64,000 bases of DNA. Source: Oligoflexia bacterium (GTDB taxonomy: Bacteria > Bdellovibrionota > UBA1018). Position 1 is the stretch's first letter; every line of letters starts with the position of its first letter. The DNA lies in NCBI GenBank assembly GCA_014378465.1, contig JACMNQ010000065.1, positions 5,186 through 69,185 of the forward strand, in the 5' to 3' direction. This document shows positions 25,358 through 54,355 of the stretch, in pieces. Below the pieces are notes generated by a model. That model was given only the letters and a program-made list of their open reading frames with translations. It searched no databases and was not told where the DNA came from. A program made the position numbers and the translations under genes.

Positions 25358-27295
25358 TTGACACAAGGTGCTGATCTTGATTCAATTCTGTCCATGGTAA
25401 AAAAAGCGGACAGCAAAGCTGCAGCAAAAAAAGCAGCACCCAAAGCCTCATCCACTCCTTCAGCAAAGGGAGGCGCGGCTTCAGAAACGAAAGGCGCCAA
25501 GGCTTCTCCAAAATCTGCTGGTTCTGCTGCCAAAAAGACTGCAGATGCCGACACGGATGCTCCGGTACGGGCTTCCAAAGCTTCGAAGTCGATCACGACA
25601 TCGAGCACTGCCGAGTACTTCTCGAAGAATCTTCAGCAAGTTGGATTCTCTTCACAGGTCAAAGCGGTTCTCACGACGCTCAAGGAAGCCGTCGATAATG
25701 CCCTGGACGCCTGCGAAGAACATGGTTTTTTGCCTGAAGTTGAAATCTGGGTCGAAAAGATCGGCGCAGGCTCCCTCAAGAATTCAGATCAGGTTCGCAT
25801 CCGAGTTCTCGACAACGGTCCGGGCATTGATCCGGATGACGTTCCCAAAGTTTTCGGCGAATACCTCGCTTCTTCAAAGTTCGGTCGCGGGCGCTGTTCA
25901 CGTGGACAGCAGGGGATCGGGATTTCCGCGGCCACCACCTGGGCGCAGTTGACCAATGCCACTGGGGCTCGAGTCATCACCAAGACTCCGAAGATGCGCA
26001 AGGCGATGTCCTGCACCGTCGAAGTGGACATCAAGCACAACAAAGGCGTGTTGAAAGACCGCGAGATGATTGAATGGGACCGCGAAAACGGAACATCGGT
26101 CGAGTTCGTGATCGATGGACGCATTCAGCTGAACGGCGAAGCCGGCCTCATCAACTACCTCACGGGCACCACGCTCGTGAATCCGCATCTCACTCTCCAT
26201 TCCAATCTTCCGGATCTCGGTCGTCAGACCGTGGAACGAGTGACTCAGGAAATCCCCGCGATCCCTGAAGCCGTCGAACCTCATCCTCACACGATGAAGC
26301 TGGGTGAATTCATTGCGCACTCCCATCTCTTCGGACGTGTGAAAGTCGGAGCCTGGCTCAAGAAGGGCTTCTCCCGCGTGAACGAAGGCACTCTCAAGGA
26401 CCTCGTCAAAGCGGGCATCAAGGCTTCACTCCTTGAAAAGTCGGTCGATGGAATGAATGAAGTCGAGTTCAAAGACCTCTTCACGAAGATCCAGAACATT
26501 CAGCTCATGGCGCCTTCCACGAAGTCAGTTCTCTCAATCGGTGAAGAAGCCCTCGCCAAGAGCATCAAGCGTCTGGGCGCAGTCGACTTCTTCGCAGTCG
26601 TGACCCGCAAGCCGACCATCTGCGATTTCAAACCCGTCGAAGTCGAAGTGGCGGTGGCCCGACTCGAAGACCGCGCGATGGAAGCGGACGCTCCCGTGCA
26701 GGTTCTTCGTTTCGCCAACCGCGTGCCGCTTCAGTTCGACAAGGCAGCCTGCGCGATCGTGCAGGCCCTGACTTCAGTGAACTGGAGAGCGTACGGAATC
26801 TCGCAGCCGAAGGAAGCTCTGCCTCAGGGTCCGTACATCATCGCGGTCAGCGTGGTGTCGCCTTTCATCAAATTCAAGAACGCCTCCAAGGAAACGGTCG
26901 ATGCTTCGGACGAACTGGTCGAAGAGATTCGCCGTGCGCTGATCCAGGCGGGACAACGCCTTTCCAAGCACATCCGCAAGGAAGACAAAGCGAATGATCT
27001 GGAAGAAAAACTTCGCCACATCGAGCAGTTCTGTCCAATTCTGGTCGATGGACTCTGCAGAATCACCGAAGCCAGCGAGGCTCGCAAGAAGCGCGCGGAA
27101 GATGGACTGGTCAAACTTCTCGGACGGGACACTCGCGTCGCGGAACAGGAACTTGCCCATGCTCATGTCTCTCTCGAAAAAATGACCGCCGCTGAAAATG
27201 CGGACCCTTCGCTGGCCGGCACCAAAAAAGGTTCAGGCAAGAAAAACGCAGAGAAAAAGAAGTCCTCCAAAAAAGAAGCTGTAGCAGCGGAGTAG
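25358..27295 (+). CDS. top6B: type IIB DNA topoisomerase VI subunit B (GHKL/Bergerat ATPase) with Lys/Ala-rich N- and C-terminal tails
   Basis: Bergerat-fold motifs EAVDNALDA (N-box), VLDNGPGI (G1) and GRCSRGQQGIGISAA (G2), then a transducer region. The track start at 25358 is TTG; the ATG at 25394 (MVKKADSK...) is more likely. N-tail AAKKAAPKASSTPSAKGG..., C-tail KKGSGKKNAEKKKSSKKE. Confidence 0.8.
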   Translation: MTQGADLDSILSMVKKADSKAAAKKAAPKASSTPSAKGGAASETKGAKASPKSAGSAAKKTADADTDAPVRASKASKSITTSSTAEYFSKNLQQVGFSSQVKAVLTTLKEAVDNALDACEEHGFLPEVEIWVEKIGAGSLKNSDQVRIRVLDNGPGIDPDDVPKVFGEYLASSKFGRGRCSRGQQGIGISAATTWAQLTNATGARVITKTPKMRKAMSCTVEVDIKHNKGVLKDREMIEWDRENGTSVEFVIDGRIQLNGEAGLINYLTGTTLVNPHLTLHSNLPDLGRQTVERVTQEIPAIPEAVEPHPHTMKLGEFIAHSHLFGRVKVGAWLKKGFSRVNEGTLKDLVKAGIKASLLEKSVDGMNEVEFKDLFTKIQNIQLMAPSTKSVLSIGEEALAKSIKRLGAVDFFAVVTRKPTICDFKPVEVEVAVARLEDRAMEADAPVQVLRFANRVPLQFDKAACAIVQALTSVNWRAYGISQPKEALPQGPYIIAVSVVSPFIKFKNASKETVDASDELVEEIRRALIQAGQRLSKHIRKEDKANDLEEKLRHIEQFCPILVDGLCRITEASEARKKRAEDGLVKLLGRDTRVAEQELAHAHVSLEKMTAAENADPSLAGTKKGSGKKNAEKKKSSKKEAVAAE

Positions 27296-27305
27296 GAAGC
27301 ATCAC

Positions 27306-28454
27306 ATGGCAATCAGACCCGATCAGGAAATTCCCAAACTCAGCAAGGAACTCTGCAACAAGCTCCTGTTGGATCTTGAAAAAGCGAAACGTCCGGTCCT
27401 CTATGCGACCAAATGCTCGCTCGACAACGCGCTTTACAATCACAAGGTGGGGTACCTCACTCCCGGACCGAAGAAAGTGGCCACTGAACTGAACGTCAGT
27501 TCGGTGAAGAAGATGTCGCGCGCGATCTTCATGCTTGAGATCATCCTGCGCAACATTGACAGCGGTGGTGTGAACACGAAGCGCGAGTTGTACTACATGA
27601 GCAAGGGTGAAATTAAGCACAATTCGATCCTGAAGCCTCTCGACTTCGGCGATCAGGATGAATCTGATGGAACCATCGATTTCATCTGCGAGCTCCTTGA
27701 ATGTTACCGCGAGGACCTGAACTGTTACGCAAATGACCGAGGCGGTCAGACTTACTCCCAGCAGCTCGTCGTGACGGAAACCCTCCCGGATGGTGACACT
27801 GCCGTCATCGATCTCGGAAAGCTCGGAACGACTCCGTTTCAGCCCAAAAATCGTCCCCAGAATCTCAAGCTCAAAGCGAAGGAAAAGATCGATTTTTGCC
27901 TGATCGTCGAGTCCGAAGGTACAGCCAACACTCTGGTCGCCAATGGATTCACGAAACGCCATCCCTCGATCCTGATGGGTGCGCAGGGCGTTCCATCCAA
28001 TGCGGTTCGCGGTTGGTGCAAGCTGATTCAGGATCAGCTCAATATCCCGCTCTATTTCTTCGGCGATCTGGATGCGTACACGATGCAGAACATCTTTCGC
28101 ACGCTCAAGGCCGGCTCTGCCGCGTCCCTGATCCGAAATTCCGATTACTCCGCGCCGGATGTCAGATTTCTTGGGGTTTTGCCTGAAGACATCAAGAAGT
28201 ACGACTTGCTCGATTATCCCGTGAAGGAAAACGACGCGCAGGAAGTCCGCGCACTCAAGAAGGCGCAGGATGCTCTCAAAAACGATCCCTTCTTTCAAGA
28301 CAAGCGCAACAAAGGCCTCACCGAGATCCTCAACTGGCTCCTCAAGAACAAAAGACGTTGTGAGCAGCAGGCTTTCTTCACCGTCAATCCTCGTGATCCC
28401 CAGATGCCTGAGAAGATCATCATGGAGAAGATCAAAGCCGGGAAATTCGTCTGA
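27306..28454 (+). CDS. top6A: type IIB DNA topoisomerase VI subunit A (Spo11/Top6A; 5Y-CAP + Toprim)
   Basis: Catalytic-tyrosine motif RELYYMS, Toprim acidic motifs LIVESEG and FFGDLDAY. Begins 8 nt after top6B, the same B-then-A order as the archaeal operon. Confidence 0.8.
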   Translation: MAIRPDQEIPKLSKELCNKLLLDLEKAKRPVLYATKCSLDNALYNHKVGYLTPGPKKVATELNVSSVKKMSRAIFMLEIILRNIDSGGVNTKRELYYMSKGEIKHNSILKPLDFGDQDESDGTIDFICELLECYREDLNCYANDRGGQTYSQQLVVTETLPDGDTAVIDLGKLGTTPFQPKNRPQNLKLKAKEKIDFCLIVESEGTANTLVANGFTKRHPSILMGAQGVPSNAVRGWCKLIQDQLNIPLYFFGDLDAYTMQNIFRTLKAGSAASLIRNSDYSAPDVRFLGVLPEDIKKYDLLDYPVKENDAQEVRALKKAQDALKNDPFFQDKRNKGLTEILNWLLKNKRRCEQQAFFTVNPRDPQMPEKIIMEKIKAGKFV

Positions 28455-28499
28455 TCTTTTGATTGCATGATCACACAGGGGTCCGATCTGAAAAATCTG

Positions 28500-28532
28500 A
28501 AGCCGTCACTCCGCTGGGGTGGCGGCTTTTTC
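28500..28532 (+). terminator. rho-independent terminator after top6A
   Basis: 12-bp GC-rich stem (AGCCGTCACTCC-gct-GGGGTGGCGGCT, two G-U pairs) followed by TTTTTC, 45 nt after the top6A stop. Confidence 0.55.
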
Positions 28533-28992
28533 ATTCCAGCGCATGGGGGTTGGGGACGGGCCGTTCGTGGATCGTGAATTGCTCGCACGCCATGAAGCTC
28601 CTGAGCTTCCCCATGAATAGGGATGCAGCGGCGCCATAGTTGAGCGGGAAGTGCAGGTTTGCGAAAGAGTACATGATCCAGAGTGAAGCTGAGGTGCGTA
28701 CGATTCCGACCATGAGAAGTCGATAGGTGTGTTTCGTTGATGCACTTCTGTGCTCGACGACTGCCAGAGATGAAGTCGCTTCCGGCGAAAGTTTGTAGAT
28801 CATCAATCCCAGAAAAACCAGGAGTCCCAGGGCCCAACGATTCGAAAAATCGATGACCAGTGTCCCGCCGAGCGCGACCGCAAGGATAAAAGCGACGAAA
28901 AGCAGGCGTCTGGGCATCCTGTTCTTTTTCCGCGGAACTGCCACTTGAGAAAGATCCAGTTTTGTCACGGGAGCTTCGATGGGATAATCCAT
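28531..28992 (-). CDS. hypothetical membrane protein
   Basis: Start chosen at the internal MDYPIEAP with a GAGG RBS. Three predicted TM segments. No recognised domain. Confidence 0.4.
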   Translation of the reverse strand: MDYPIEAPVTKLDLSQVAVPRKKNRMPRRLLFVAFILAVALGGTLVIDFSNRWALGLLVFLGLMIYKLSPEATSSLAVVEHRSASTKHTYRLLMVGIVRTSASLWIMYSFANLHFPLNYGAAASLFMGKLRSFMACEQFTIHERPVPNPHALE

Positions 28993-29248
28993 GTCCTCAT
29001 TCTGTTCCAGATGGGATTTCTTGTGAAGCGGTCGCAATGTCAGAAATCTTGCCGTATGAACCACCACTCGGTGAGTTGCCTGAACGCGGTGGGAGACTTG
29101 GAACTGGACTGTTTGCACCACTCGCATGAGGATGTGCGGGTGCAGGGGGAGTGAAGTGGGTGCCTGCTCTGGATTTGAGTCCGGCTGCAGAGTCATCTTT
29201 TATGATTCTAAGTTCTCATGCTCATTTTCCAAAGCCTGGTCATAGTGT

Positions 29249-29881
29249 TCAGTGGAGGATATTTTGCAAGTCTATGCGTTGACTGGATTTGAAAGGAGAC
29301 TGGGACGATTGGGCGGATGACTTGATTGAGGACTCCCCACTCAGCAGTTCAAAAACTTTCGCACGGGTGCCCGCTCGGATGATTCCGAAGTCGATCAGTT
29401 CTTCGCCGATGCAGGGAATGCCGAGCTTCTCCTTGACCCGAATGGCGCCAATGTTCTGGACGGGTGTCTTGAAGAGAATGCGCTTCAGATCGAAACGTTC
29501 GAAAAAAACCTGGCAAGCTTTCGGATAGCTCCGTAGTCCCAGCCCCCGATTTCGGAAAGTGGGATTCCACACGTGCGCATGAAAAATGCCGTGGTCGCCC
29601 TCAATCAGTGGAAAGAGGGTGTGCACACCCACGGTCCGTCCGTCGCAAGTGATTGCGAGAGCGTGGAGTTTGGAAGTCGAGAGCAGACAATTGTCGGTGA
29701 TATTCTGAAGAGTGCCGCGGGCCATTTCGGCTTCAGTCGGTAACTTCGACAGGTCTACGCCCATTCTTTCAACGAAACCGGGAGGAGAGCGGTACCAGTA
29801 GTCCAGCATCAGGGGGACATCCTGCTCCGAGAGATCACGTACTGAGATGTGCTCAGTCGAGAGTGGGCGGGAAACAATCAT
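29249..29881 (-). CDS. GNAT family N-acetyltransferase
   Basis: GNAT core (GVHTLFPLIEGD...RNRGLG). Start chosen at the internal MIVSRPL, which has a GGAGG RBS 7 nt upstream. Confidence 0.65.
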   Translation of the reverse strand: MIVSRPLSTEHISVRDLSEQDVPLMLDYWYRSPPGFVERMGVDLSKLPTEAEMARGTLQNITDNCLLSTSKLHALAITCDGRTVGVHTLFPLIEGDHGIFHAHVWNPTFRNRGLGLRSYPKACQVFFERFDLKRILFKTPVQNIGAIRVKEKLGIPCIGEELIDFGIIRAGTRAKVFELLSGESSIKSSAQSSQSPFKSSQRIDLQNILH

Positions 29882-29906
29882 CCTCGAGCCTCCAAAAAGG
29901 TCCCGC

Positions 29907-30296
29907 TCAAGACTTCTGAATCCCATCCCGAAACGCGGACTCAAACTTGATCCAGCTTCGTATATCCTGATCAGGCAAACCATTTTCCCGCAACACTTCC
30001 TCGAGAATTCGAAGCCGCCGATCAAAATGGCCAGCGAGAATGGGGGCAAGTTCGAGGTGCGCCTGGGCAGGAGCTTTACCGGAGTATGAGAAGCTGCCGC
30101 CCATGGCTCGCATGAGGAACTGTTTCTGCTTTTCGGCGATAACGTCGACGTCCTTCCCATCGAAGAAAAAACCGATGAGGATGTCATCACGCATGCGCGC
30201 GTAAAAAGTGTGAAGGATTTTCGAGAGACCCGTTTCTCCGCCGATTTTTTCGTAAATGGCCTTGAGCTCGGGTTTGCTGACGGAGATCTCTTTCAT
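29907..30296 (-). CDS. group I truncated hemoglobin (2/2 Hb)
   Basis: 129 aa. trHb pattern: Phe/Tyr B-helix pair (FYARMRDD) and proximal His region (...AHLELAPILAGHF). Confidence 0.6.
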   Translation of the reverse strand: MKEISVSKPELKAIYEKIGGETGLSKILHTFYARMRDDILIGFFFDGKDVDVIAEKQKQFLMRAMGGSFSYSGKAPAQAHLELAPILAGHFDRRLRILEEVLRENGLPDQDIRSWIKFESAFRDGIQKS

Positions 30297-30311
30297 TTCA
30301 TTCTTTCTGAG

Positions 30312-31202
30312 TCAGAACGCCTGGGCCTTGGCCTGAATCCAGGAGTAGAAGAATACTGCGTCGGGATCGTCCTTCAGACGTTCCAGTTCCTGTTCCATCT
30401 CGTCGACGATTTCCTGAGTGACTTTTCCCGCTTCGATCAGGCCGGCCGCGCCGCTGAGGAGGAGGTTGATCCAGTACTCAATGAACTGCGCGCGCTGCTT
30501 GGGCGCGCGGTTGTCGTAGTGGTGAATGAGATTTTTGGTCGTGATGTTCTGAAATCCCGCAGCCATCAGGTAATTGGCGAGCTTCGCACCCACGAAAGGA
30601 TCTCCTTTGAGATTCCATTGATGGTCGTTGAAAGCAAACCAGTATTGAAGTGTGGCCGGGCTGTACGGATGGACGTAGAAGGAAGAGTTGAGAACTTCGT
30701 TGCAGTAAATCGTACCGCTCGGCTTCATCACGCGGCGGATTTCGCGGAGAATTTCGATCGGCTCCTGAACGTGTTCAAGAAACCAGCAGACGAAGGCTCC
30801 GTCGAAGGCATCTTCTTCGAAGGGGAGGTGGAGCGCGTCGGCGACGTCCAGCTTCAGACGATTGGAACTGAGGTGAGAGGCGAGGTGATTGCGGGCACGC
30901 TTGACTTGAGCCTCAGAGGCATCAAGTCCGTGGATGAAAAGCTGGGGAAAGCGCTCGAGGAGAATTTCCGTCTGAGCTCCCACCCCGCAGCCGACTTCCA
31001 GGACCTGATGCTGTTGAGAGAAATCAATATGTTCGTAAACGCTTTTTTCGAGGAAACGAGCCTGCTTGTAGAGCCGGTCCTGTTCATCAGACGAATAACC
31101 GTGTAGGTAGCCCGGGGCCACTCCCGTTGCGGGTTTCGTTTTTGACGGACGGGGAGGACGTGCAGCTGGAGCCGCGTGAGCGGGCTTTTTCTTCATCGCC
31201 AT
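30312..31202 (-). CDS. class I SAM-dependent methyltransferase with Lys/Pro-rich N-terminal tail
   Basis: Motif I VLEVGCGVG and post-I acidic LD. N-terminus MAMKKKPAHAAPAARPPRPSKTKP. Begins 45 nt downstream of the histone-fold gene on the same strand. Confidence 0.75.
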   Translation of the reverse strand: MAMKKKPAHAAPAARPPRPSKTKPATGVAPGYLHGYSSDEQDRLYKQARFLEKSVYEHIDFSQQHQVLEVGCGVGAQTEILLERFPQLFIHGLDASEAQVKRARNHLASHLSSNRLKLDVADALHLPFEEDAFDGAFVCWFLEHVQEPIEILREIRRVMKPSGTIYCNEVLNSSFYVHPYSPATLQYWFAFNDHQWNLKGDPFVGAKLANYLMAAGFQNITTKNLIHHYDNRAPKQRAQFIEYWINLLLSGAAGLIEAGKVTQEIVDEMEQELERLKDDPDAVFFYSWIQAKAQAF

Positions 31203-31247
31203 CGTAACCTTTTCATGACCTCAACAGGCCGTCTGTAAAACCCGGAA

Positions 31248-31466
31248 TTACATGAAATCGCGGTCCATGACGGTCTTGCGACCTTCACGTTTCGCGTTTT
31301 CAATGGCCTGGTCACACAAAGCACGCACTTTGTCGGACAGAGCGCTGATCACGGCGCCAGAAGTGTTCATTCCAGACTTGGCACGGATGTAGTTTTTCAG
31401 CTTGGAAGCGACTACGAGAACTTCTGCGCCATCAGTACCGGTGTTTTCTTGGTTTTCGTTTTCCAT
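31248..31466 (-). CDS. bacterial histone-fold protein (Bdellovibrio HBb / DUF1931-like)
   Basis: 72 aa. LVVASKLKNYIRAKSGMNTSGAVISALSDKVRALCDQAIENAKREGRKTVMDRDF resembles the histone fold (alpha1-L1-alpha2-L2-short alpha3) including the (A)GRKT(I/V)xxxD signature of archaeal HMf-type and Bdellovibrio histones. AGGA RBS. Confidence 0.6.
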   Translation of the reverse strand: MENENQENTGTDGAEVLVVASKLKNYIRAKSGMNTSGAVISALSDKVRALCDQAIENAKREGRKTVMDRDFM

Positions 31467-31487
31467 TTGAGATTCCTTTGCTTCTTT

Positions 31488-31527
31488 GTATTTCTGGGTA
31501 TTTCTGGGTATTTCTGGGTATTTCTGA
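31488..31527. repeat. tandem 10-bp repeat x4 (GTATTTCTGG; CCAGAAATAC on the coding strand) immediately upstream of the histone-fold gene
   Basis: Three perfect copies plus a fourth with one mismatch, 22-61 nt upstream of the histone ATG, within the 85-bp spacer after the FKBP gene. Confidence 0.85.
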
Positions 31528-31551
31528 AAAATCGATGAAATTAAGGATTCC

Positions 31552-32046
31552 TTATTCGACGTTCAGGAGTTCAACGTCGAAGATCAGAGTCGCATTCGGA
31601 GGAATGACTCCGCCGGCACCTTGAGCGCCGTAACCCAGCTTCGCAGGGATGGTCAGCTTGCGCTTGCCGTGAACTTTCATTCCAGCGACGCCCTGGTCCC
31701 AGCCTGCGATGACCTGCTGAGCGCCGAGCACGAACTTGAACGGCTGGCCGCGATCCACGGAGGAGTCGAACTTTTTGCCATCAGTCAGAGTGCCCGTGTA
31801 ATGCACGGTCACGGTTTTTCCAGCGACGGCTTCTTTGCCGTCTCCCACTTTTTGGTCTTCAATTTTCAGTTCAGTCACGTCGGCAACTTTCTGGTTGGTG
31901 TTCGCGCTGGTTGAAGCCGTGGTGTTGCCACCAGCGGGAGCTTCAGCATTTTCCTTCTTGGTGCATCCAGCGGTCACAGTGAGAGCTGCGGCAATCGCGC
32001 CAACAGCCAATAACGAGTTTAAATTCTTCATGAGTTCTCTCTCCAT
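31552..32046 (-). CDS. FKBP-type peptidyl-prolyl cis-trans isomerase lipoprotein
   Basis: Signal peptide with lipobox TAGC, and an FKBP domain (TVHYTGTLTDGKKFDSS...FDVELL). Confidence 0.8.
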   Translation of the reverse strand: MERELMKNLNSLLAVGAIAAALTVTAGCTKKENAEAPAGGNTTASTSANTNQKVADVTELKIEDQKVGDGKEAVAGKTVTVHYTGTLTDGKKFDSSVDRGQPFKFVLGAQQVIAGWDQGVAGMKVHGKRKLTIPAKLGYGAQGAGGVIPPNATLIFDVELLNVE

Positions 32047-32163
32047 TTGATCTTAAAACAGCTTGGGTTAGGTCTGTAGAGTGGCATAGGTTTTTGAGAT
32101 CCGCGAGCCCAGAATGGTTTAAAAGCGTATTCAGGTTCAAGTTGTGCGTTGCGTGATTTGACG

Positions 32164-32940
32164 TCAAGCTCCAGCGCGGGGCGGCGAATTCTGCCGAAGC
32201 TTCAGGCCAAGGACCTGGGCATGATCGCGGAGAATTCGAATCACTTCGTCCGGATCATCTGTGAGAGTGAGGAGGTCGAGAGACTCCGGACCGATGGTTC
32301 CCTCACGGAGCAAAGTGTCTTTGAACCAGTCCAGGAGCCCTTTCCAGTAATCGCTGCCCATGAGGATCACCGGGAAGTCGTAAAGCTTGCCGGTCTGTAT
32401 GAGAGTCATCGCTTCCGAAAGTTCATCGATTGTTCCATAGCCTCCGGGCAGGATGATGAATGCGGATGAGTATTTCACGAGGATGACTTTGCGGACGAAG
32501 AAGTAATAGAAGGTCACGACCTGGTCGACATAAGGGTTCGAACTCTGTTCATGGGGCAGAACGATATTCACACCGATGGACTGCCCGTTGGCTTCTTTTG
32601 CTCCTCGATTTGCAGCCTCCATCAGCCCAGGGCCGCCTCCGGTCATGACTGCGAAGCCAGCGCGAGCCACTGCCGAGCCGATGGCCTGAGCTTGAGCGTA
32701 GTAGCGATGGTTTTCAGGAAAACGTGCGGAGCCGAAAATCGTCACTGCCGGCCCGAGGTCATGAAAAGCTCGGAAGCCGCGGACGAATTCCTGTCCAATC
32801 CGCAGAATCCGCATGAGCTCACGCGTACGGGAGCGTCGCGTGGCGAGAAAGAGCGCTTCTCCCTGGAGATCGCTCATTCGGCGGACACGGGCTCGAGGGC
32901 TGAAGAATTGCCTCCATTCAAGCAGGTTTAAGAGTGACAT
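32164..32940 (-). CDS. LOG family protein (cytokinin riboside 5'-monophosphate phosphoribohydrolase-like / TIGR00730)
   Basis: PGGYGTIDEL motif and a Rossmann-like fold. Start chosen at the internal MSLLNLLEW; the 95-aa N-terminal extension in the ORF track is low-complexity. Confidence 0.75.
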   Translation of the reverse strand: MSLLNLLEWRQFFSPRARVRRMSDLQGEALFLATRRSRTRELMRILRIGQEFVRGFRAFHDLGPAVTIFGSARFPENHRYYAQAQAIGSAVARAGFAVMTGGGPGLMEAANRGAKEANGQSIGVNIVLPHEQSSNPYVDQVVTFYYFFVRKVILVKYSSAFIILPGGYGTIDELSEAMTLIQTGKLYDFPVILMGSDYWKGLLDWFKDTLLREGTIGPESLDLLTLTDDPDEVIRILRDHAQVLGLKLRQNSPPRAGA

Positions 32941-33023
32941 CGTATCCCTGGTTCTAGAGGGGTTGCGTGCAGGAGTCAAACGCAGCTTGACTGGGTATCC
33001 ACTGATGTTATTCCTGAAGACCC

Positions 33024-34031
33024 ATGAAACTTCTGCCGCGCCTGACGAATACTGTTTCCATGCTCGTACTGCGTGCTGCAAGTCTCCTGAGTCTCTTGAG
33101 TCTCTTGGTGCTTCTGCTGGCGCCCAGTGCCTTCTGTTTTCAGCTGGATACGGAAGTGGCGGGGGCGGGGATCCTGAAGTGCAAAGCATACCTGCGTCTG
33201 CCTGCGGGTGCCGCAAGAGGTTCAAGTGCGCCTCGCAAGTTTCCTCTCGTGGTGGAACAGCGGGGAACCGGCATCTACTCGACTCACGATCTCGCAGGTC
33301 CCGTTCTCTACGCGCTGGTCAGGGAAGGCAAAGCCGCACTGCTCACGATCGACAAGCCCGGAATCAGTGTGCTGCTCGACGGAGAACTCCGAGTGGACCG
33401 TCAGACCTACCTGCAGCACACTCAGCGTGATCTCGTGGAATGTCTGGATCATGCCATCACCTGGGCTTCGCAGGATCTGCATGTCGGCACGGCTTCTGAC
33501 GTCTACTTCTTCGGCCACAGCGAAGGCACTCAGGTTCTTTCTCGTCTCTACCTGAAATTCCTGAACGAACGAGCCGCGATGCTCTCGCGCGTGAAAATGA
33601 TTCAGCTCAGCGGCCTGATCCTGAATTCCTGGAAGGACATCCTGGACTTTCAACTCAAGCAGGACACGACGATCCATCGTTTTGAGTTCTGGCATGCGAT
33701 GGAGACGAAGAATGACACTCGTCTGATTCAACTGGCGGAACTGGGGCACGTCTACTTTGAGGACATCTTCGCGACTGAAACCAACCTGGACACTCTGAAG
33801 GAAATCATTCGGAGAGCTCCAGGCGTTCAGTTCCAGATCTATCAGGGACTCAAGGATGAGCGGACGGAAGCGGGACCGGTTCAGGCCTTCGAAGACTTCA
33901 ATGAGAGCCAGCGAAAAAAAGGTTTCCGGCACCTGAAGATCAAAGCGCGCTATTACCAGGCGATCCATGCCCTGAGCGCGACCGCGAAAGCCGACGTCCT
34001 GTATGCTCTGTTTTCGCACTTAAGTGATTGA
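33024..34031 (+). CDS. secreted alpha/beta hydrolase
   Basis: Leu-rich signal peptide and nucleophile elbow GHSEG (GxSxG). Confidence 0.55.
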   Translation: MKLLPRLTNTVSMLVLRAASLLSLLSLLVLLLAPSAFCFQLDTEVAGAGILKCKAYLRLPAGAARGSSAPRKFPLVVEQRGTGIYSTHDLAGPVLYALVREGKAALLTIDKPGISVLLDGELRVDRQTYLQHTQRDLVECLDHAITWASQDLHVGTASDVYFFGHSEGTQVLSRLYLKFLNERAAMLSRVKMIQLSGLILNSWKDILDFQLKQDTTIHRFEFWHAMETKNDTRLIQLAELGHVYFEDIFATETNLDTLKEIIRRAPGVQFQIYQGLKDERTEAGPVQAFEDFNESQRKKGFRHLKIKARYYQAIHALSATAKADVLYALFSHLSD

Positions 34032-34071
34032 TTTTGTGGACTGGCTTCCGTCTAGACTGTAAGCGTTATAA

Positions 34072-51977: not shown

Positions 51978-54355
51978 GAAATCCTCGTCAGCGGAGGAGG
52001 GGCGTCGGCCGGATTTGAGGGATGATTCGTCAAATGACCCGACCTCAACGTGAAGTAAAAGGTCGTTCCATGCCCAAGGCTCGAATCAAACCAGATTTTG
52101 CCGCCGTGGCGTTCGATGATTTTCCGAACGATGGTGAGACCGGCTCCTGATCCGCCGCCGTATTTGTCCTGCGCATGGAGTCGCTTGAAGATCTGAAACA
52201 CCAGATCCCGGTGCTTGAGATCAATTCCGATCCCGTTGTCACGGACGAAAAAGACCGGGCACTCCGCTGATTCCGGGCCGCCCCCCTGCTGCACGGTCCC
52301 GATCTCAATCGTCTTCTTCTCGATTTCATTGTACTTGGTCGCATTGACGATGAGGTTATGGAAAACTTCGGTGATCTGAATCCGGTCGCAGACCAGAGTG
52401 GGCAGTTCCCCCAGGATGGTCACGTTCGCATGAGTGTCAGTCAGACACGTTCTCAGGGAGTCACATGCCTCTTCGACCGCTTCCCGAAGCGGGGTTGGCT
52501 GAAGTTCAAGGTCGATGCGGCCAACCCGCGACAACCGAAGGAGCGACTCGATCAGAGCATTCATCCTGCCCGTCATGGTCATGAGTCGACTCAATTTGTG
52601 TTTTCCGTCTTCATCAAGTTTGTCGGCGTAGTCTTCGATGAGAAAAGTGGCATAAGTGTGAATGCCGCGCAGCGGTTCCTTGAGATCATGCGAAGCCACG
52701 TAAGCGAAGGAGTCGAGCTCCTGATTGCTTCTCTCAAGTTCCTGATTGAGTCTGAACATTTCCTTGGCGCGGTCCGCGATGAGCATCATGAAGGCCTGCC
52801 TGAACTCAAGCGCGATTTGCTTCTCGGAGGCTTTCCAAGGGGTGCTTTTTCCCCTGACGATTTCATCCCAGAGTTCGAAGGATTTCCGAGGCGTGAGTTT
52901 TTCACCAGAAGCGAGATTCTTCGCTGATTTGCGCGGATCAGCGCCCCAGGGGATGGTCTGCATCTGTTCGCTTCGAAACCAGATCACCACATATTTCTCA
53001 TCCGGCGTCAGTGAGACGCCCAGCATCCCGCTCGCCTGTGACGCCCAGTCTGCGGCATGGGGAAAGATTCGGGCGATCTCATCCGTCGCATAGACGGGCT
53101 GTTCGCTCTGGTTCATCACATGGTTCACCAGTTCAGAAATCGCTTCACGGGGCGGGGTCTTTCCCAGCAGGAGCGGGGGTTCGTTGCGCAGACAGAAGGC
53201 GGCTCCTTCGGCTTCAACCATGGCGAGAAAGTCCTCTTCCTGGCTTTTGATCCCCTGAAGAAGCGTACGAACATCAGGGGCGCTCAGGAGTTTCAGAACA
53301 TCAAGCAGATGCACTCGCAGGCGGAGTTCGGCTTCGGTTTTTATTTTGGTTTCGAGACCCGGAATCTGAAGCGAGATGATTCTTCCGATGAACTCACATG
53401 CCGCACGTTTCTGATAATCGAGTTCATGGGGAGAATCGTGATGGCAGGAGATGAGGCCCCAGAGTTCCCCGTCCTTGACAAGGGAAATGGACATGGAAGC
53501 TTCGACTTGAATGTTGCTCAGATATTCGACATGAACGGGCGATACGGCTCGCAGAAAGCATTTGCTCAAGTCCAGGCGGTCTCCTGTTACCGGATTGAAT
53601 TCGGGCACGATGGGAGAAGAAGGAGCCTTGACTTCCGTGATCAGACGCAGGCGGTTGAGTGCAAACAGGCGCCGCGCCTGTTTCGGGATATCGCTTTCAG
53701 GAAAATGCAGTCCGAGAAAAGCGTCCTGGTCATCCCGTTTTCGCTCAGCGATGACTTTCAGGTGTCCACCCTCCACGACCCGGTGAATCCACACGCGGTC
53801 AAAGCCGGTGATGGACCTCACTTCTTCGACTGCACTTTCACAGAGGTCATGAAGCGAGGCAGCCTGCTGAATCCGGAAGATTGAACTGGTGAATTGATCG
53901 TAGAATTCCACAAAAGAAAGCAGCGGTTCGCTTTGAAGAGAGGTCTCAAACTCCAGAACCGCGATGGAGGCTTCGATGGATACTTCTGGCAAAGGATGAA
54001 TGGAGACCGTGTAGTCCCGGACTCCGCCGCTGAGCTGCAGGGAAAGTTTCAGCGGCTTCACTTCCTTCGAATCAATTGAAGCCTGCAGTTGGTCGCCCAG
54101 GCGCTGAGTGTCTCGTGGATTTATCCAGCCGGAAATGGATCTGCCGAGGAGGGCACTGGCCGGCAAATCCATGAAACTGACACAGTTTTCGCTGGCCTGA
54201 AGAATTTTCCCGGAGGGAAACTGAACCACGAGGAGACAGCCGTGGGGCTGCACGCCACCGATCAGGTGGATGGGTTCCCGGTCACAATTGGTCAAATCAA
54301 CGGTCTGCCCCGCGGTTTTCCAGGAATTGAAAGTGCTCACCGGGGAGCCACCCAC
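51974..54355 (-). CDS. bphP: bacteriophytochrome photosensory histidine kinase (PAS-GAF-PHY-HisKA-HATPase_c)
   Basis: N-terminal CDREPIHLIGGVQPHGCLL (biliverdin-binding Cys plus PAS knot region). GAF with ...DIPKQARRLF...HVEYLSNIQVEASMSISL... HK H-box ASHDLKEPLR and ATPase boxes. Confidence 0.85.
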   Translation of the reverse strand: MGGSPVSTFNSWKTAGQTVDLTNCDREPIHLIGGVQPHGCLLVVQFPSGKILQASENCVSFMDLPASALLGRSISGWINPRDTQRLGDQLQASIDSKEVKPLKLSLQLSGGVRDYTVSIHPLPEVSIEASIAVLEFETSLQSEPLLSFVEFYDQFTSSIFRIQQAASLHDLCESAVEEVRSITGFDRVWIHRVVEGGHLKVIAERKRDDQDAFLGLHFPESDIPKQARRLFALNRLRLITEVKAPSSPIVPEFNPVTGDRLDLSKCFLRAVSPVHVEYLSNIQVEASMSISLVKDGELWGLISCHHDSPHELDYQKRAACEFIGRIISLQIPGLETKIKTEAELRLRVHLLDVLKLLSAPDVRTLLQGIKSQEEDFLAMVEAEGAAFCLRNEPPLLLGKTPPREAISELVNHVMNQSEQPVYATDEIARIFPHAADWASQASGMLGVSLTPDEKYVVIWFRSEQMQTIPWGADPRKSAKNLASGEKLTPRKSFELWDEIVRGKSTPWKASEKQIALEFRQAFMMLIADRAKEMFRLNQELERSNQELDSFAYVASHDLKEPLRGIHTYATFLIEDYADKLDEDGKHKLSRLMTMTGRMNALIESLLRLSRVGRIDLELQPTPLREAVEEACDSLRTCLTDTHANVTILGELPTLVCDRIQITEVFHNLIVNATKYNEIEKKTIEIGTVQQGGGPESAECPVFFVRDNGIGIDLKHRDLVFQIFKRLHAQDKYGGGSGAGLTIVRKIIERHGGKIWFDSSLGHGTTFYFTLRSGHLTNHPSNPADAPPPLTRIS

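Follow-up and report, generated by a model that had tools for sequence, protein, structure and literature searches.

The closest described system to the gene reported here is HBb (Bd0055) of Bdellovibrio bacteriovorus HD100 (PDB 8CMP, 8FVX, 8FW7, 9EZZ, 9F0E). HBb is enriched in the nucleoid, ranks in the top 6% of genes by expression and is probably essential (PMC10627809; PMC11390915). Its binding mode is disputed, with bending of DNA described in one study (Hu 2024, PMC11317129) and filament-like coating of straight DNA in another (Hocher 2023, PMC10627809). In the filament crystal, N-termini are swapped between dimers. Simulations of HBb single out N22, R57, S9, T53, T8, S24, K10, K12, K52 and K16 as the ten top DNA-contact residues, and HBb D49 braces the RD clamp (PMC11317129). 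Bd0055 needed A48, S45 and I61 mutated to H, F and L, respectively, before it wrapped DNA (Hocher et al., PMC10627809). Two archaeal-histone residues, the 'sprocket' arginine and His49 of the four-helix bundle, are missing from bacterial singlets (Hocher 2023, PMC10627809). The 'bacterial dimer' category was delineated by sequence clustering (Schwab 2024, PMC11390915), and its members are defined by the lack of exactly the two face-to-face residues (Schwab et al., PMC11390915). In the face-to-face histone HLp of Leptospira perolatii, the tetramer interface residues are R49 and N53 (bioRxiv 10.1101/2025.05.08.652872). DUF1931 proteins are pseudodimeric, have no DNA-binding residues and are treated as a class of their own (PMC11390915; bioRxiv 10.1101/2025.05.08.652872).

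Histones are found in 1.86% of bacterial genomes, and a Bd0055 homologue in ∼67% of Bdellovibrionota genomes (PMC10627809). Hence, the rarity that the initial annotation of this locus attributed to bacterial histones holds for bacteria at large but not within this phylum. Because ∼67% of the phylum's genomes carry such a homologue, the histone described below extends a known family by one unexceptional member. HBb-type histones have already been crystallised, biochemically characterised and catalogued, and one more adds little scientifically. The only leads that go past the published picture are an acidic tail and a histone–topoisomerase VI neighbourhood.

The window, i.e. the whole stretch of DNA analysed (64,000 nucleotides), contains a 72-codon ORF with an ATG start whose product, taken from the ORF list and its translation, is MENENQENTGTDGAEVLVVASKLKNYIRAKSGMNTSGAVISALSDKVRALCDQAIENAKREGRKTVMDRDFM. 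The gene and its start signal are laid out as follows:

31248–31466, minus strand: histone gene, HBb-type with truncated α3, called from the ORF, HBb matches, purifying selection, predicted secondary structure and residue mapping
31467–31486, minus strand: ribosome-binding region AAAGGAAT, abutting the ATG on its 5′ side, read from the sequence

The product has an acidic N-terminal tail (residues 1–13) followed by the histone fold (residues 14–72). An identical protein at NCBI, MBC7692842.1 from a 194-kb contig of an Oligoflexia MAG, is named 'hypothetical protein', and the annotation can therefore be improved. That accession is filed under both 'Methylotenera sp.' (locus tag H7222_13860) and, in nr, 'Oligoflexia bacterium'. 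Since all close relatives and the gene context indicate Bdellovibrionota (class Oligoflexia, by MAG-level labels), the former name is apparently a mistake of binning or labelling.

The ORF had initially been annotated, from the letters of the sequence, as an HBb-like histone-fold gene in a bacterium, with these coordinates, a length of 72 aa and a GRKTV..D motif. All of this was borne out, the motif lying at G62–V66 ... D70, confirming that a bacterial histone can be spotted by reading raw sequence. When phmmer was run against all PDB sequences, the best matches were HBb/Bd0055 entries (8cmp, E 6.4e-13; 8fvx, E 8.5e-13). The alignment to HBb is ungapped over residues 14–71, with 31 of 58 positions identical (53%), and α1, α2 and the loops are thus equal in length to those of HBb. 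A profile (A1) built from 46 relatives matched HBb with an E value of 2.8e-21. The next class was 10 orders of magnitude behind: HLp (9qt0) scored 1.3e-11, the HTkC-type entry 9f2c at 4.6e-7, HmvA at 0.015 and archaeal histone A at 0.18, with archaeal histones spanning 0.015–0.19. In the AF2 model (single chain, moderate confidence), helices at residues 11–31 and 37–61 are separated by a loop, and a second loop leads to a one-turn helix at 66–68. This three-residue helix is what remains of α3, and only six residues follow the RKTV loop. Foldseek comparison of the model, which the initial annotation had proposed as a check, placed five HBb entries first (probability 0.97–0.99, TM 0.53–0.64). 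Collectively, these data indicate that the protein very probably belongs to the HBb (Bd0055) family, within the 'bacterial dimer' subgroup, and by analogy would be a handshake dimer that binds DNA non-specifically and bends or coats it without wrapping.

To compare individual residues, we numbered HBb positions onto the histone with the +12 offset given by the phmmer alignment. The ten HBb contacts then map, in the order given above, to N34, R69, S21, T65, A20, S36, K22, K24, K64 and R28. Eight of the ten are identical; K16 is conservatively replaced by R, and T8 by an alanine (A20) that is invariant in the clade. The contact positions show little or no variation among the 46 relatives. The S-K motif at the start of α1 is kept, with S21-K22 invariant, K24 nearly so, and R28 in place of HBb K16. 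Loop L2 reads G62-R63-K64-T65-V66 and continues M67-D68-R69-D70, in agreement with the RKTxxxD signature. The RD clamp, R51–D58 in HBb, is R63–D70 here, and the auxiliary D49 corresponds to E61. Across the 46 relatives, S21, K22, N34, T35, S36 and the whole run from R63 through F71 are invariant. The histone thus has in common with HBb the S-K motif, the N-T-S of L1, the GRKTV loop and the RD clamp with its acidic brace (D49/E61), as well as the absence of the tetramerisation histidine, and the two proteins share a phylum. Unlike HBb, it has a 12-residue acidic extension, is net neutral rather than +2, and carries A20 for T8.

By homology to HBb, two chains would form a handshake histone-fold homodimer, which is predicted to contact the DNA phosphate backbone at the minor groove without sequence specificity. 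Contacts from one chain would come from the first turn of α1 (S21, K22, K24, R28) and from loop L1 (N34, T35, S36), and those from the partner chain from loop L2 and α3 (K64, T65, R69). The R63–D70 clamp would fix loop L2, reinforced by E61. Nucleosome-like wrapping is not expected, because both the tetramerisation histidine (R60 here) and the face-to-face R/N pair (N57/E61) are missing. Instead, DNA may be bent by isolated dimers, covered densely by a protein filament when the protein:DNA ratio is high, or both. Extrapolating from experiments on HBb, a homologue with 53% identity, the protein is likely to be an abundant, sequence-nonspecific major nucleoid protein in this organism too.

One alternative is that the protein is a tetramer-forming, DNA-wrapping 'face-to-face' α3 histone like Leptospira HLp or archaeal HTkC. 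The histone resembles HLp (9QT0) and HTkC (9F2C) in its truncated-α3 fold, similar length, A-S-K start of α1, RD clamp and C-terminal D-F ending. Among PDB matches, HLp also ranks second, with E 1.3e-7 for the single sequence and 1.3e-11 for the profile. Moreover, its ...TDF end, in which F63 lies in the tetramer interface (bioRxiv 10.1101/2025.05.08.652872), is echoed by the ...RDF-M end here, and F71 is invariant in the clade. Against this, the conserved R49/N53 pair at the HLp interface (R48/N52 in the HMM logo) is absent, its places in the alignment being taken by N57 and E61, and E61 matches HBb D49, the RD-clamp brace (PMC11317129). It is by lacking just these two residues that bacterial dimers are defined (PMC11390915). 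L2 also differs, being RKT here and RTT in HLp, and the HBb match is better by ∼5 orders of magnitude with the single sequence (6e-13 versus 1.3e-7) and by 10 with the profile. The positions that had to be changed before Bd0055 wrapped DNA point the same way: the counterparts of A48 and S45 are R60 and N57, and I61 has none, since the C-terminus is four residues shorter and that position falls past it. We therefore consider the face-to-face reading improbable and retain that of an HBb-type dimer.

With archaeal HMfA/B and HTkA (PF00808), the histone shares the GRKT[IV]xxxD signature of L2 and the RD clamp and the α1-L1-α2-L2-α3 plan. Unlike the archaeal nucleosomal histones, it has a shorter α2 and an α3 cut short of their three turns, and R60 stands at the equivalent of His49. 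Hypernucleosome formation is not expected. The kinship with archaeal HMf that had been read from the motif is real, but it is weak by sequence: the archaeal-histone models score below threshold (PF00808, 17.1 versus a cut-off of 21.4 bits; NF043032, 19.9 versus 50). BLASTP against HMfB, the other check proposed at the outset, gave no alignment (HMfB sequence entered by hand). With the same hand-entered HMfB sequence, hhalign of profile A1 covered 30 columns (C-terminal α2, L2 and α3) with an E value of 2.3e-4 and a probability of 44%.

The initial annotation had further attached the label DUF1931 to the protein, which proved wrong. A Pfam search at E ≤ 1 returned only PF00808 and no DUF1931 (PF09123) match. 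DUF1931 proteins (Aq_328, 1R4V; T. thermophilus, 1WWI) do belong to the same bacterial histone-fold superfamily. However, they are doublets (pseudodimers) without DNA-binding residues, as described in the literature (PMC11390915; bioRxiv 10.1101/2025.05.08.652872), whereas the present protein is a 72-aa singlet that keeps them. The label may have originated in the PDB, whose depositors called the singlet HLp a 'DUF1931 domain-containing protein'.

The DUF1931 pseudodimers do raise a second alternative, since they have been proposed to act outside chromatin, as protein–protein interaction modules or specific regulators. Prokaryotic histone-fold proteins need not all organise genomes (Schwab et al., PMC11390915), the acidic tail makes the whole protein net neutral, and its DNA binding is predicted by homology to HBb. 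Yet the core alone is +5, nearly all HBb DNA-contact residues are kept and are invariant in the clade, and HBb, the nearest relative to have been characterised, is a DNA-binding protein enriched in the nucleoid (PMC10627809). Together with the singlet architecture and the lack of a DUF1931 match, these observations make a non-chromatin role highly improbable, and they favor the HBb-type nucleoid protein described above.

ZZ histones were also considered. No zinc-finger sequence occurs in the histone ORF or anywhere in the window. Hence, by every sequence criterion compared, the protein falls outside the face-to-face, nucleosomal, ZZ and DUF1931 classes. Among the 80 best related loci, 12 (L005, L011–L014, L016, L017, L022, L024, L030, L051, L060) do show a Cys-rich zinc finger (…CSSCKK…CNVSTCNRKR…FCSVSCWDAHVP…) directly 5′ of the histone core, in the same frame in L005, L051 and L060, as in ZZ histones. 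This domain, assigned by eye, is probably ZZ-type. No second histone was found in the window. Elsewhere, the top-scoring 50%-identity cluster representatives (P0121–P0170) include many of 120–270 aa with two matched stretches; these long forms appear to be tandem (doublet) histone folds or N-terminally extended forms.

The 72-codon ORF is a real gene. A search of 5.8 billion proteins yielded 1385 homologues at E ≤ 1e-3, 608 clusters (50% identity) in the representative library match the histone (287 at E ≤ 1e-10), and relatives are encoded in no fewer than 558 species-representative genomes. For locus comparisons, we used the best 80 related loci from these ≥558 genomes, nearly all of which are labelled as Bdellovibrionota, Oligoflexia or Bacteriovoracaceae MAGs; the Bd0055 locus of strain HD100 is not one of the 80. 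In a 55-codon core compared with 74 related genes, codon positions 1, 2 and 3 differ at 0.161, 0.125 and 0.577 of sites, respectively, and 1730 synonymous codon differences stand against 861 non-synonymous ones. These excesses at third positions and synonymous sites indicate that selection acts on the protein (purifying selection). An AGGA ribosome-binding site lies 8–11 nt 5′ of the ATG, and the annotated start is further supported by the 'MEN...' N-termini kept in relatives. A scan for promoters and terminators around the gene found neither a sigma-70 consensus promoter nor an intrinsic terminator, and an Rfam scan of the whole window gave no match. Although the missing promoter and terminator and the length of only 72 codons might suggest a chance open frame, the >1300 homologues, the protein-level selection, the well-placed ribosome-binding site and the match to crystallised HBb refute that idea, leaving it a negligible likelihood.

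The clearest departure from HBb is at the N-terminus. HBb starts MAEVL, and the histone has 12 additional residues, which form the acidic tail MENENQENTGTDG. The charge of the tail is about −4 to −5, versus +5 for the fold core, and since the acidic tail cancels the basic core, the whole protein is net neutral (HBb, +2). The tail is a general feature of the clade: the segment preceding the LVVASK motif is net negative in 76 of 76 relatives examined, with a median length of 12 residues (range 5–29) and a mean charge of −3. We speculate that the tail may temper DNA affinity or compete with DNA, or may alter dimer–dimer packing. The C-terminus also differs, ending ...DRDFM as compared to ...RDIVIDHL in HBb. 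It stops one residue past RDF, four residues sooner than HBb, an ending more frequent in the clade than any other. Given the neutral charge and the shorter C-terminus, quantitative behaviour could differ from that of HBb.

The histone gene sits inside a run of genes on the same strand, convergent with the genes for topoisomerase VI B and A. In order of coordinate, the surrounding genes are:

25358–27295, plus strand: topoisomerase VI B (Pfam Topo-VIb_trans, 3.5e-45)
27306–28454, plus strand: topoisomerase VI A (Pfam TOP6A-Spo11_Toprim, 7.2e-37)
28531–29196, minus strand: 221-aa protein with no assignment
about 29249–29878, minus strand: GNAT without specific family assignment
29907–30296, minus strand: truncated globin
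30312–31202, minus strand: class I SAM-dependent methyltransferase (UbiE/MenG-like), the downstream neighbour (Pfam Methyltransf_11, 1.7e-21; NCBIfam below every cut-off)
31552–32046, minus strand: lipoprotein FKBP-type peptidyl-prolyl isomerase, the upstream neighbour (Pfam FKBP_C, 5.9e-39; NCBIfam FkpA/FklB/BamJ-like)
32164–33225, minus strand: LOG-family protein

This neighbourhood (25358–36069 in the window) is kept in a Bdellovibrionota MAG subclade (L001–L078). The order is B12-radical-SAM, LOG, (gap), lipoprotein FKBP, histone, (methyltransferase), truncated globin, (0–4 kb) and convergent topoisomerase VI A/B. Among the 80 best related loci, an FKBP gene lies directly upstream on the same strand as the histone in 41, a globin gene downstream in 29, and a topoisomerase VI A gene within 6 kb in 23; a methyltransferase gene adjoins the histone in 12 and a GNAT gene in one.

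The FKBP gene is possibly co-transcribed with the histone gene. Its product is predicted to be exported, because the translation shows a lipoprotein signal peptide (...LTVTAGC lipobox). We considered whether it could be a histone chaperone and rejected the idea in view of this signal peptide and the resemblance to periplasmic FkpA/BamJ-type proteins. The suggestion in the initial annotation that possible modifying enzymes lie nearby also failed. The methyltransferase is a generic class I UbiE/MenG-like enzyme that matches only small-molecule families, far below cut-off, and the GNAT has no specific family; neither has a link to chromatin, and they accompany the histone in just 12 and 1 of the 80 loci, respectively.

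The type IIB topoisomerase noted at the start is, by contrast with these enzymes, as annotated: the histone gene does have genuine topoisomerase VI genes as neighbours, at a distance of 2.8 kb. Unlike here, the two loci of HD100 carry widely separated locus numbers (Bd0055 versus Bd2864/5; PMC11318664); that histone and topoisomerase VI co-occur in B. bacteriovorus had been noted before. A topoisomerase VI-like gene near IHF histones, a different class, appears in a figure of PMC11390915. Topoisomerase VI is by far the best-conserved neighbour (71–89% identity), and 22 loci show the convergent layout, with 0.4–6 kb between histone and topoisomerase. In locus L047 (2691–6228, plus strand), TopoVI-B, TopoVI-A, FKBP and histone all read in one direction, and only 5 and 13 bp separate FKBP from TopoVI-A and from the histone, respectively; this operon-like arrangement is unlike the convergent layout of the window. 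The close linkage is clade-specific and could reflect either selection or plain synteny inertia. Topoisomerase VI is thus a conserved neighbour, for which functional partnership is a candidate reading only.

A bolder proposal, which we regard as rather unlikely, is that in one Bdellovibrionota clade the histone and topoisomerase VI form a selectively maintained chromosome-architecture neighbourhood whose linkage survives rearrangement, and that the universal acidic tail serves to adjust, from within the protein, how tightly DNA is bound or how filaments pack. If true, histone-coated or histone-bent DNA would be functionally coupled with a type IIB decatenase. Neither the coupling to topoisomerase VI nor the tail as modulator was found in the bacterial-histone literature cited here, and the two features could guide work on the tuning and topology of bacterial histone chromatin.

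The topoisomerase VI B ORF opens at TTG, a putative start, and begins with a ∼75-residue N-terminal extension (25358–25590, plus strand) that is rich in Lys, Ala, Ser and Pro (…KKADSKAAAKKAAPKASS…) and histone H1-like. It ends in a Lys-rich C-terminal tail (27200–27295, plus strand). Most TopoVI-B relatives begin just ahead of ITTSSTAEYF. A similar N-tail is present in L023, and Lys-rich C-tails in L002, L006, L008, L043 and L059.

The 85-bp spacer between FKBP and histone contains a short tandem repeat, located between the FKBP stop codon and the ribosome-binding site:

31487–31526, minus strand: four tandem 10-bp units, CAGAAATACC three times and then CAGAAATACA (TRF period 10, 3.9 copies, 100% match)

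The period equals one helical turn. The array is absent from 80 of the 80 best related loci, whose FKBP–histone spacers are shorter, and elsewhere in the window the unit recurs, with one mismatch, at just five scattered sites, never in tandem. Its absence from all 80 loci led us to reject a conserved regulatory element; the repeat looks like a lineage-specific slippage expansion.

GC content is 0.51–0.59 throughout the window, as in ordinary chromosomal DNA. With GC uniform and no compositional anomaly, recent horizontal acquisition was likewise rejected. The surroundings are of a housekeeping kind, with genes for aconitase, H+-pyrophosphatase, PrkA, helicases, RmuC and a bacteriophytochrome kinase. 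The last of these, a bacteriophytochrome-type histidine kinase (51974–54355, minus strand) with PAS_2, GAF, PHY, HisKA and HATPase domains, is unrelated to the histone. The B12-binding radical SAM protein (34072–36069, plus strand) reads DAGGG-DAGGG-DAGGG around residues 140–160, a peptide repeat that implies a 15-bp tandem repeat in the coding sequence.
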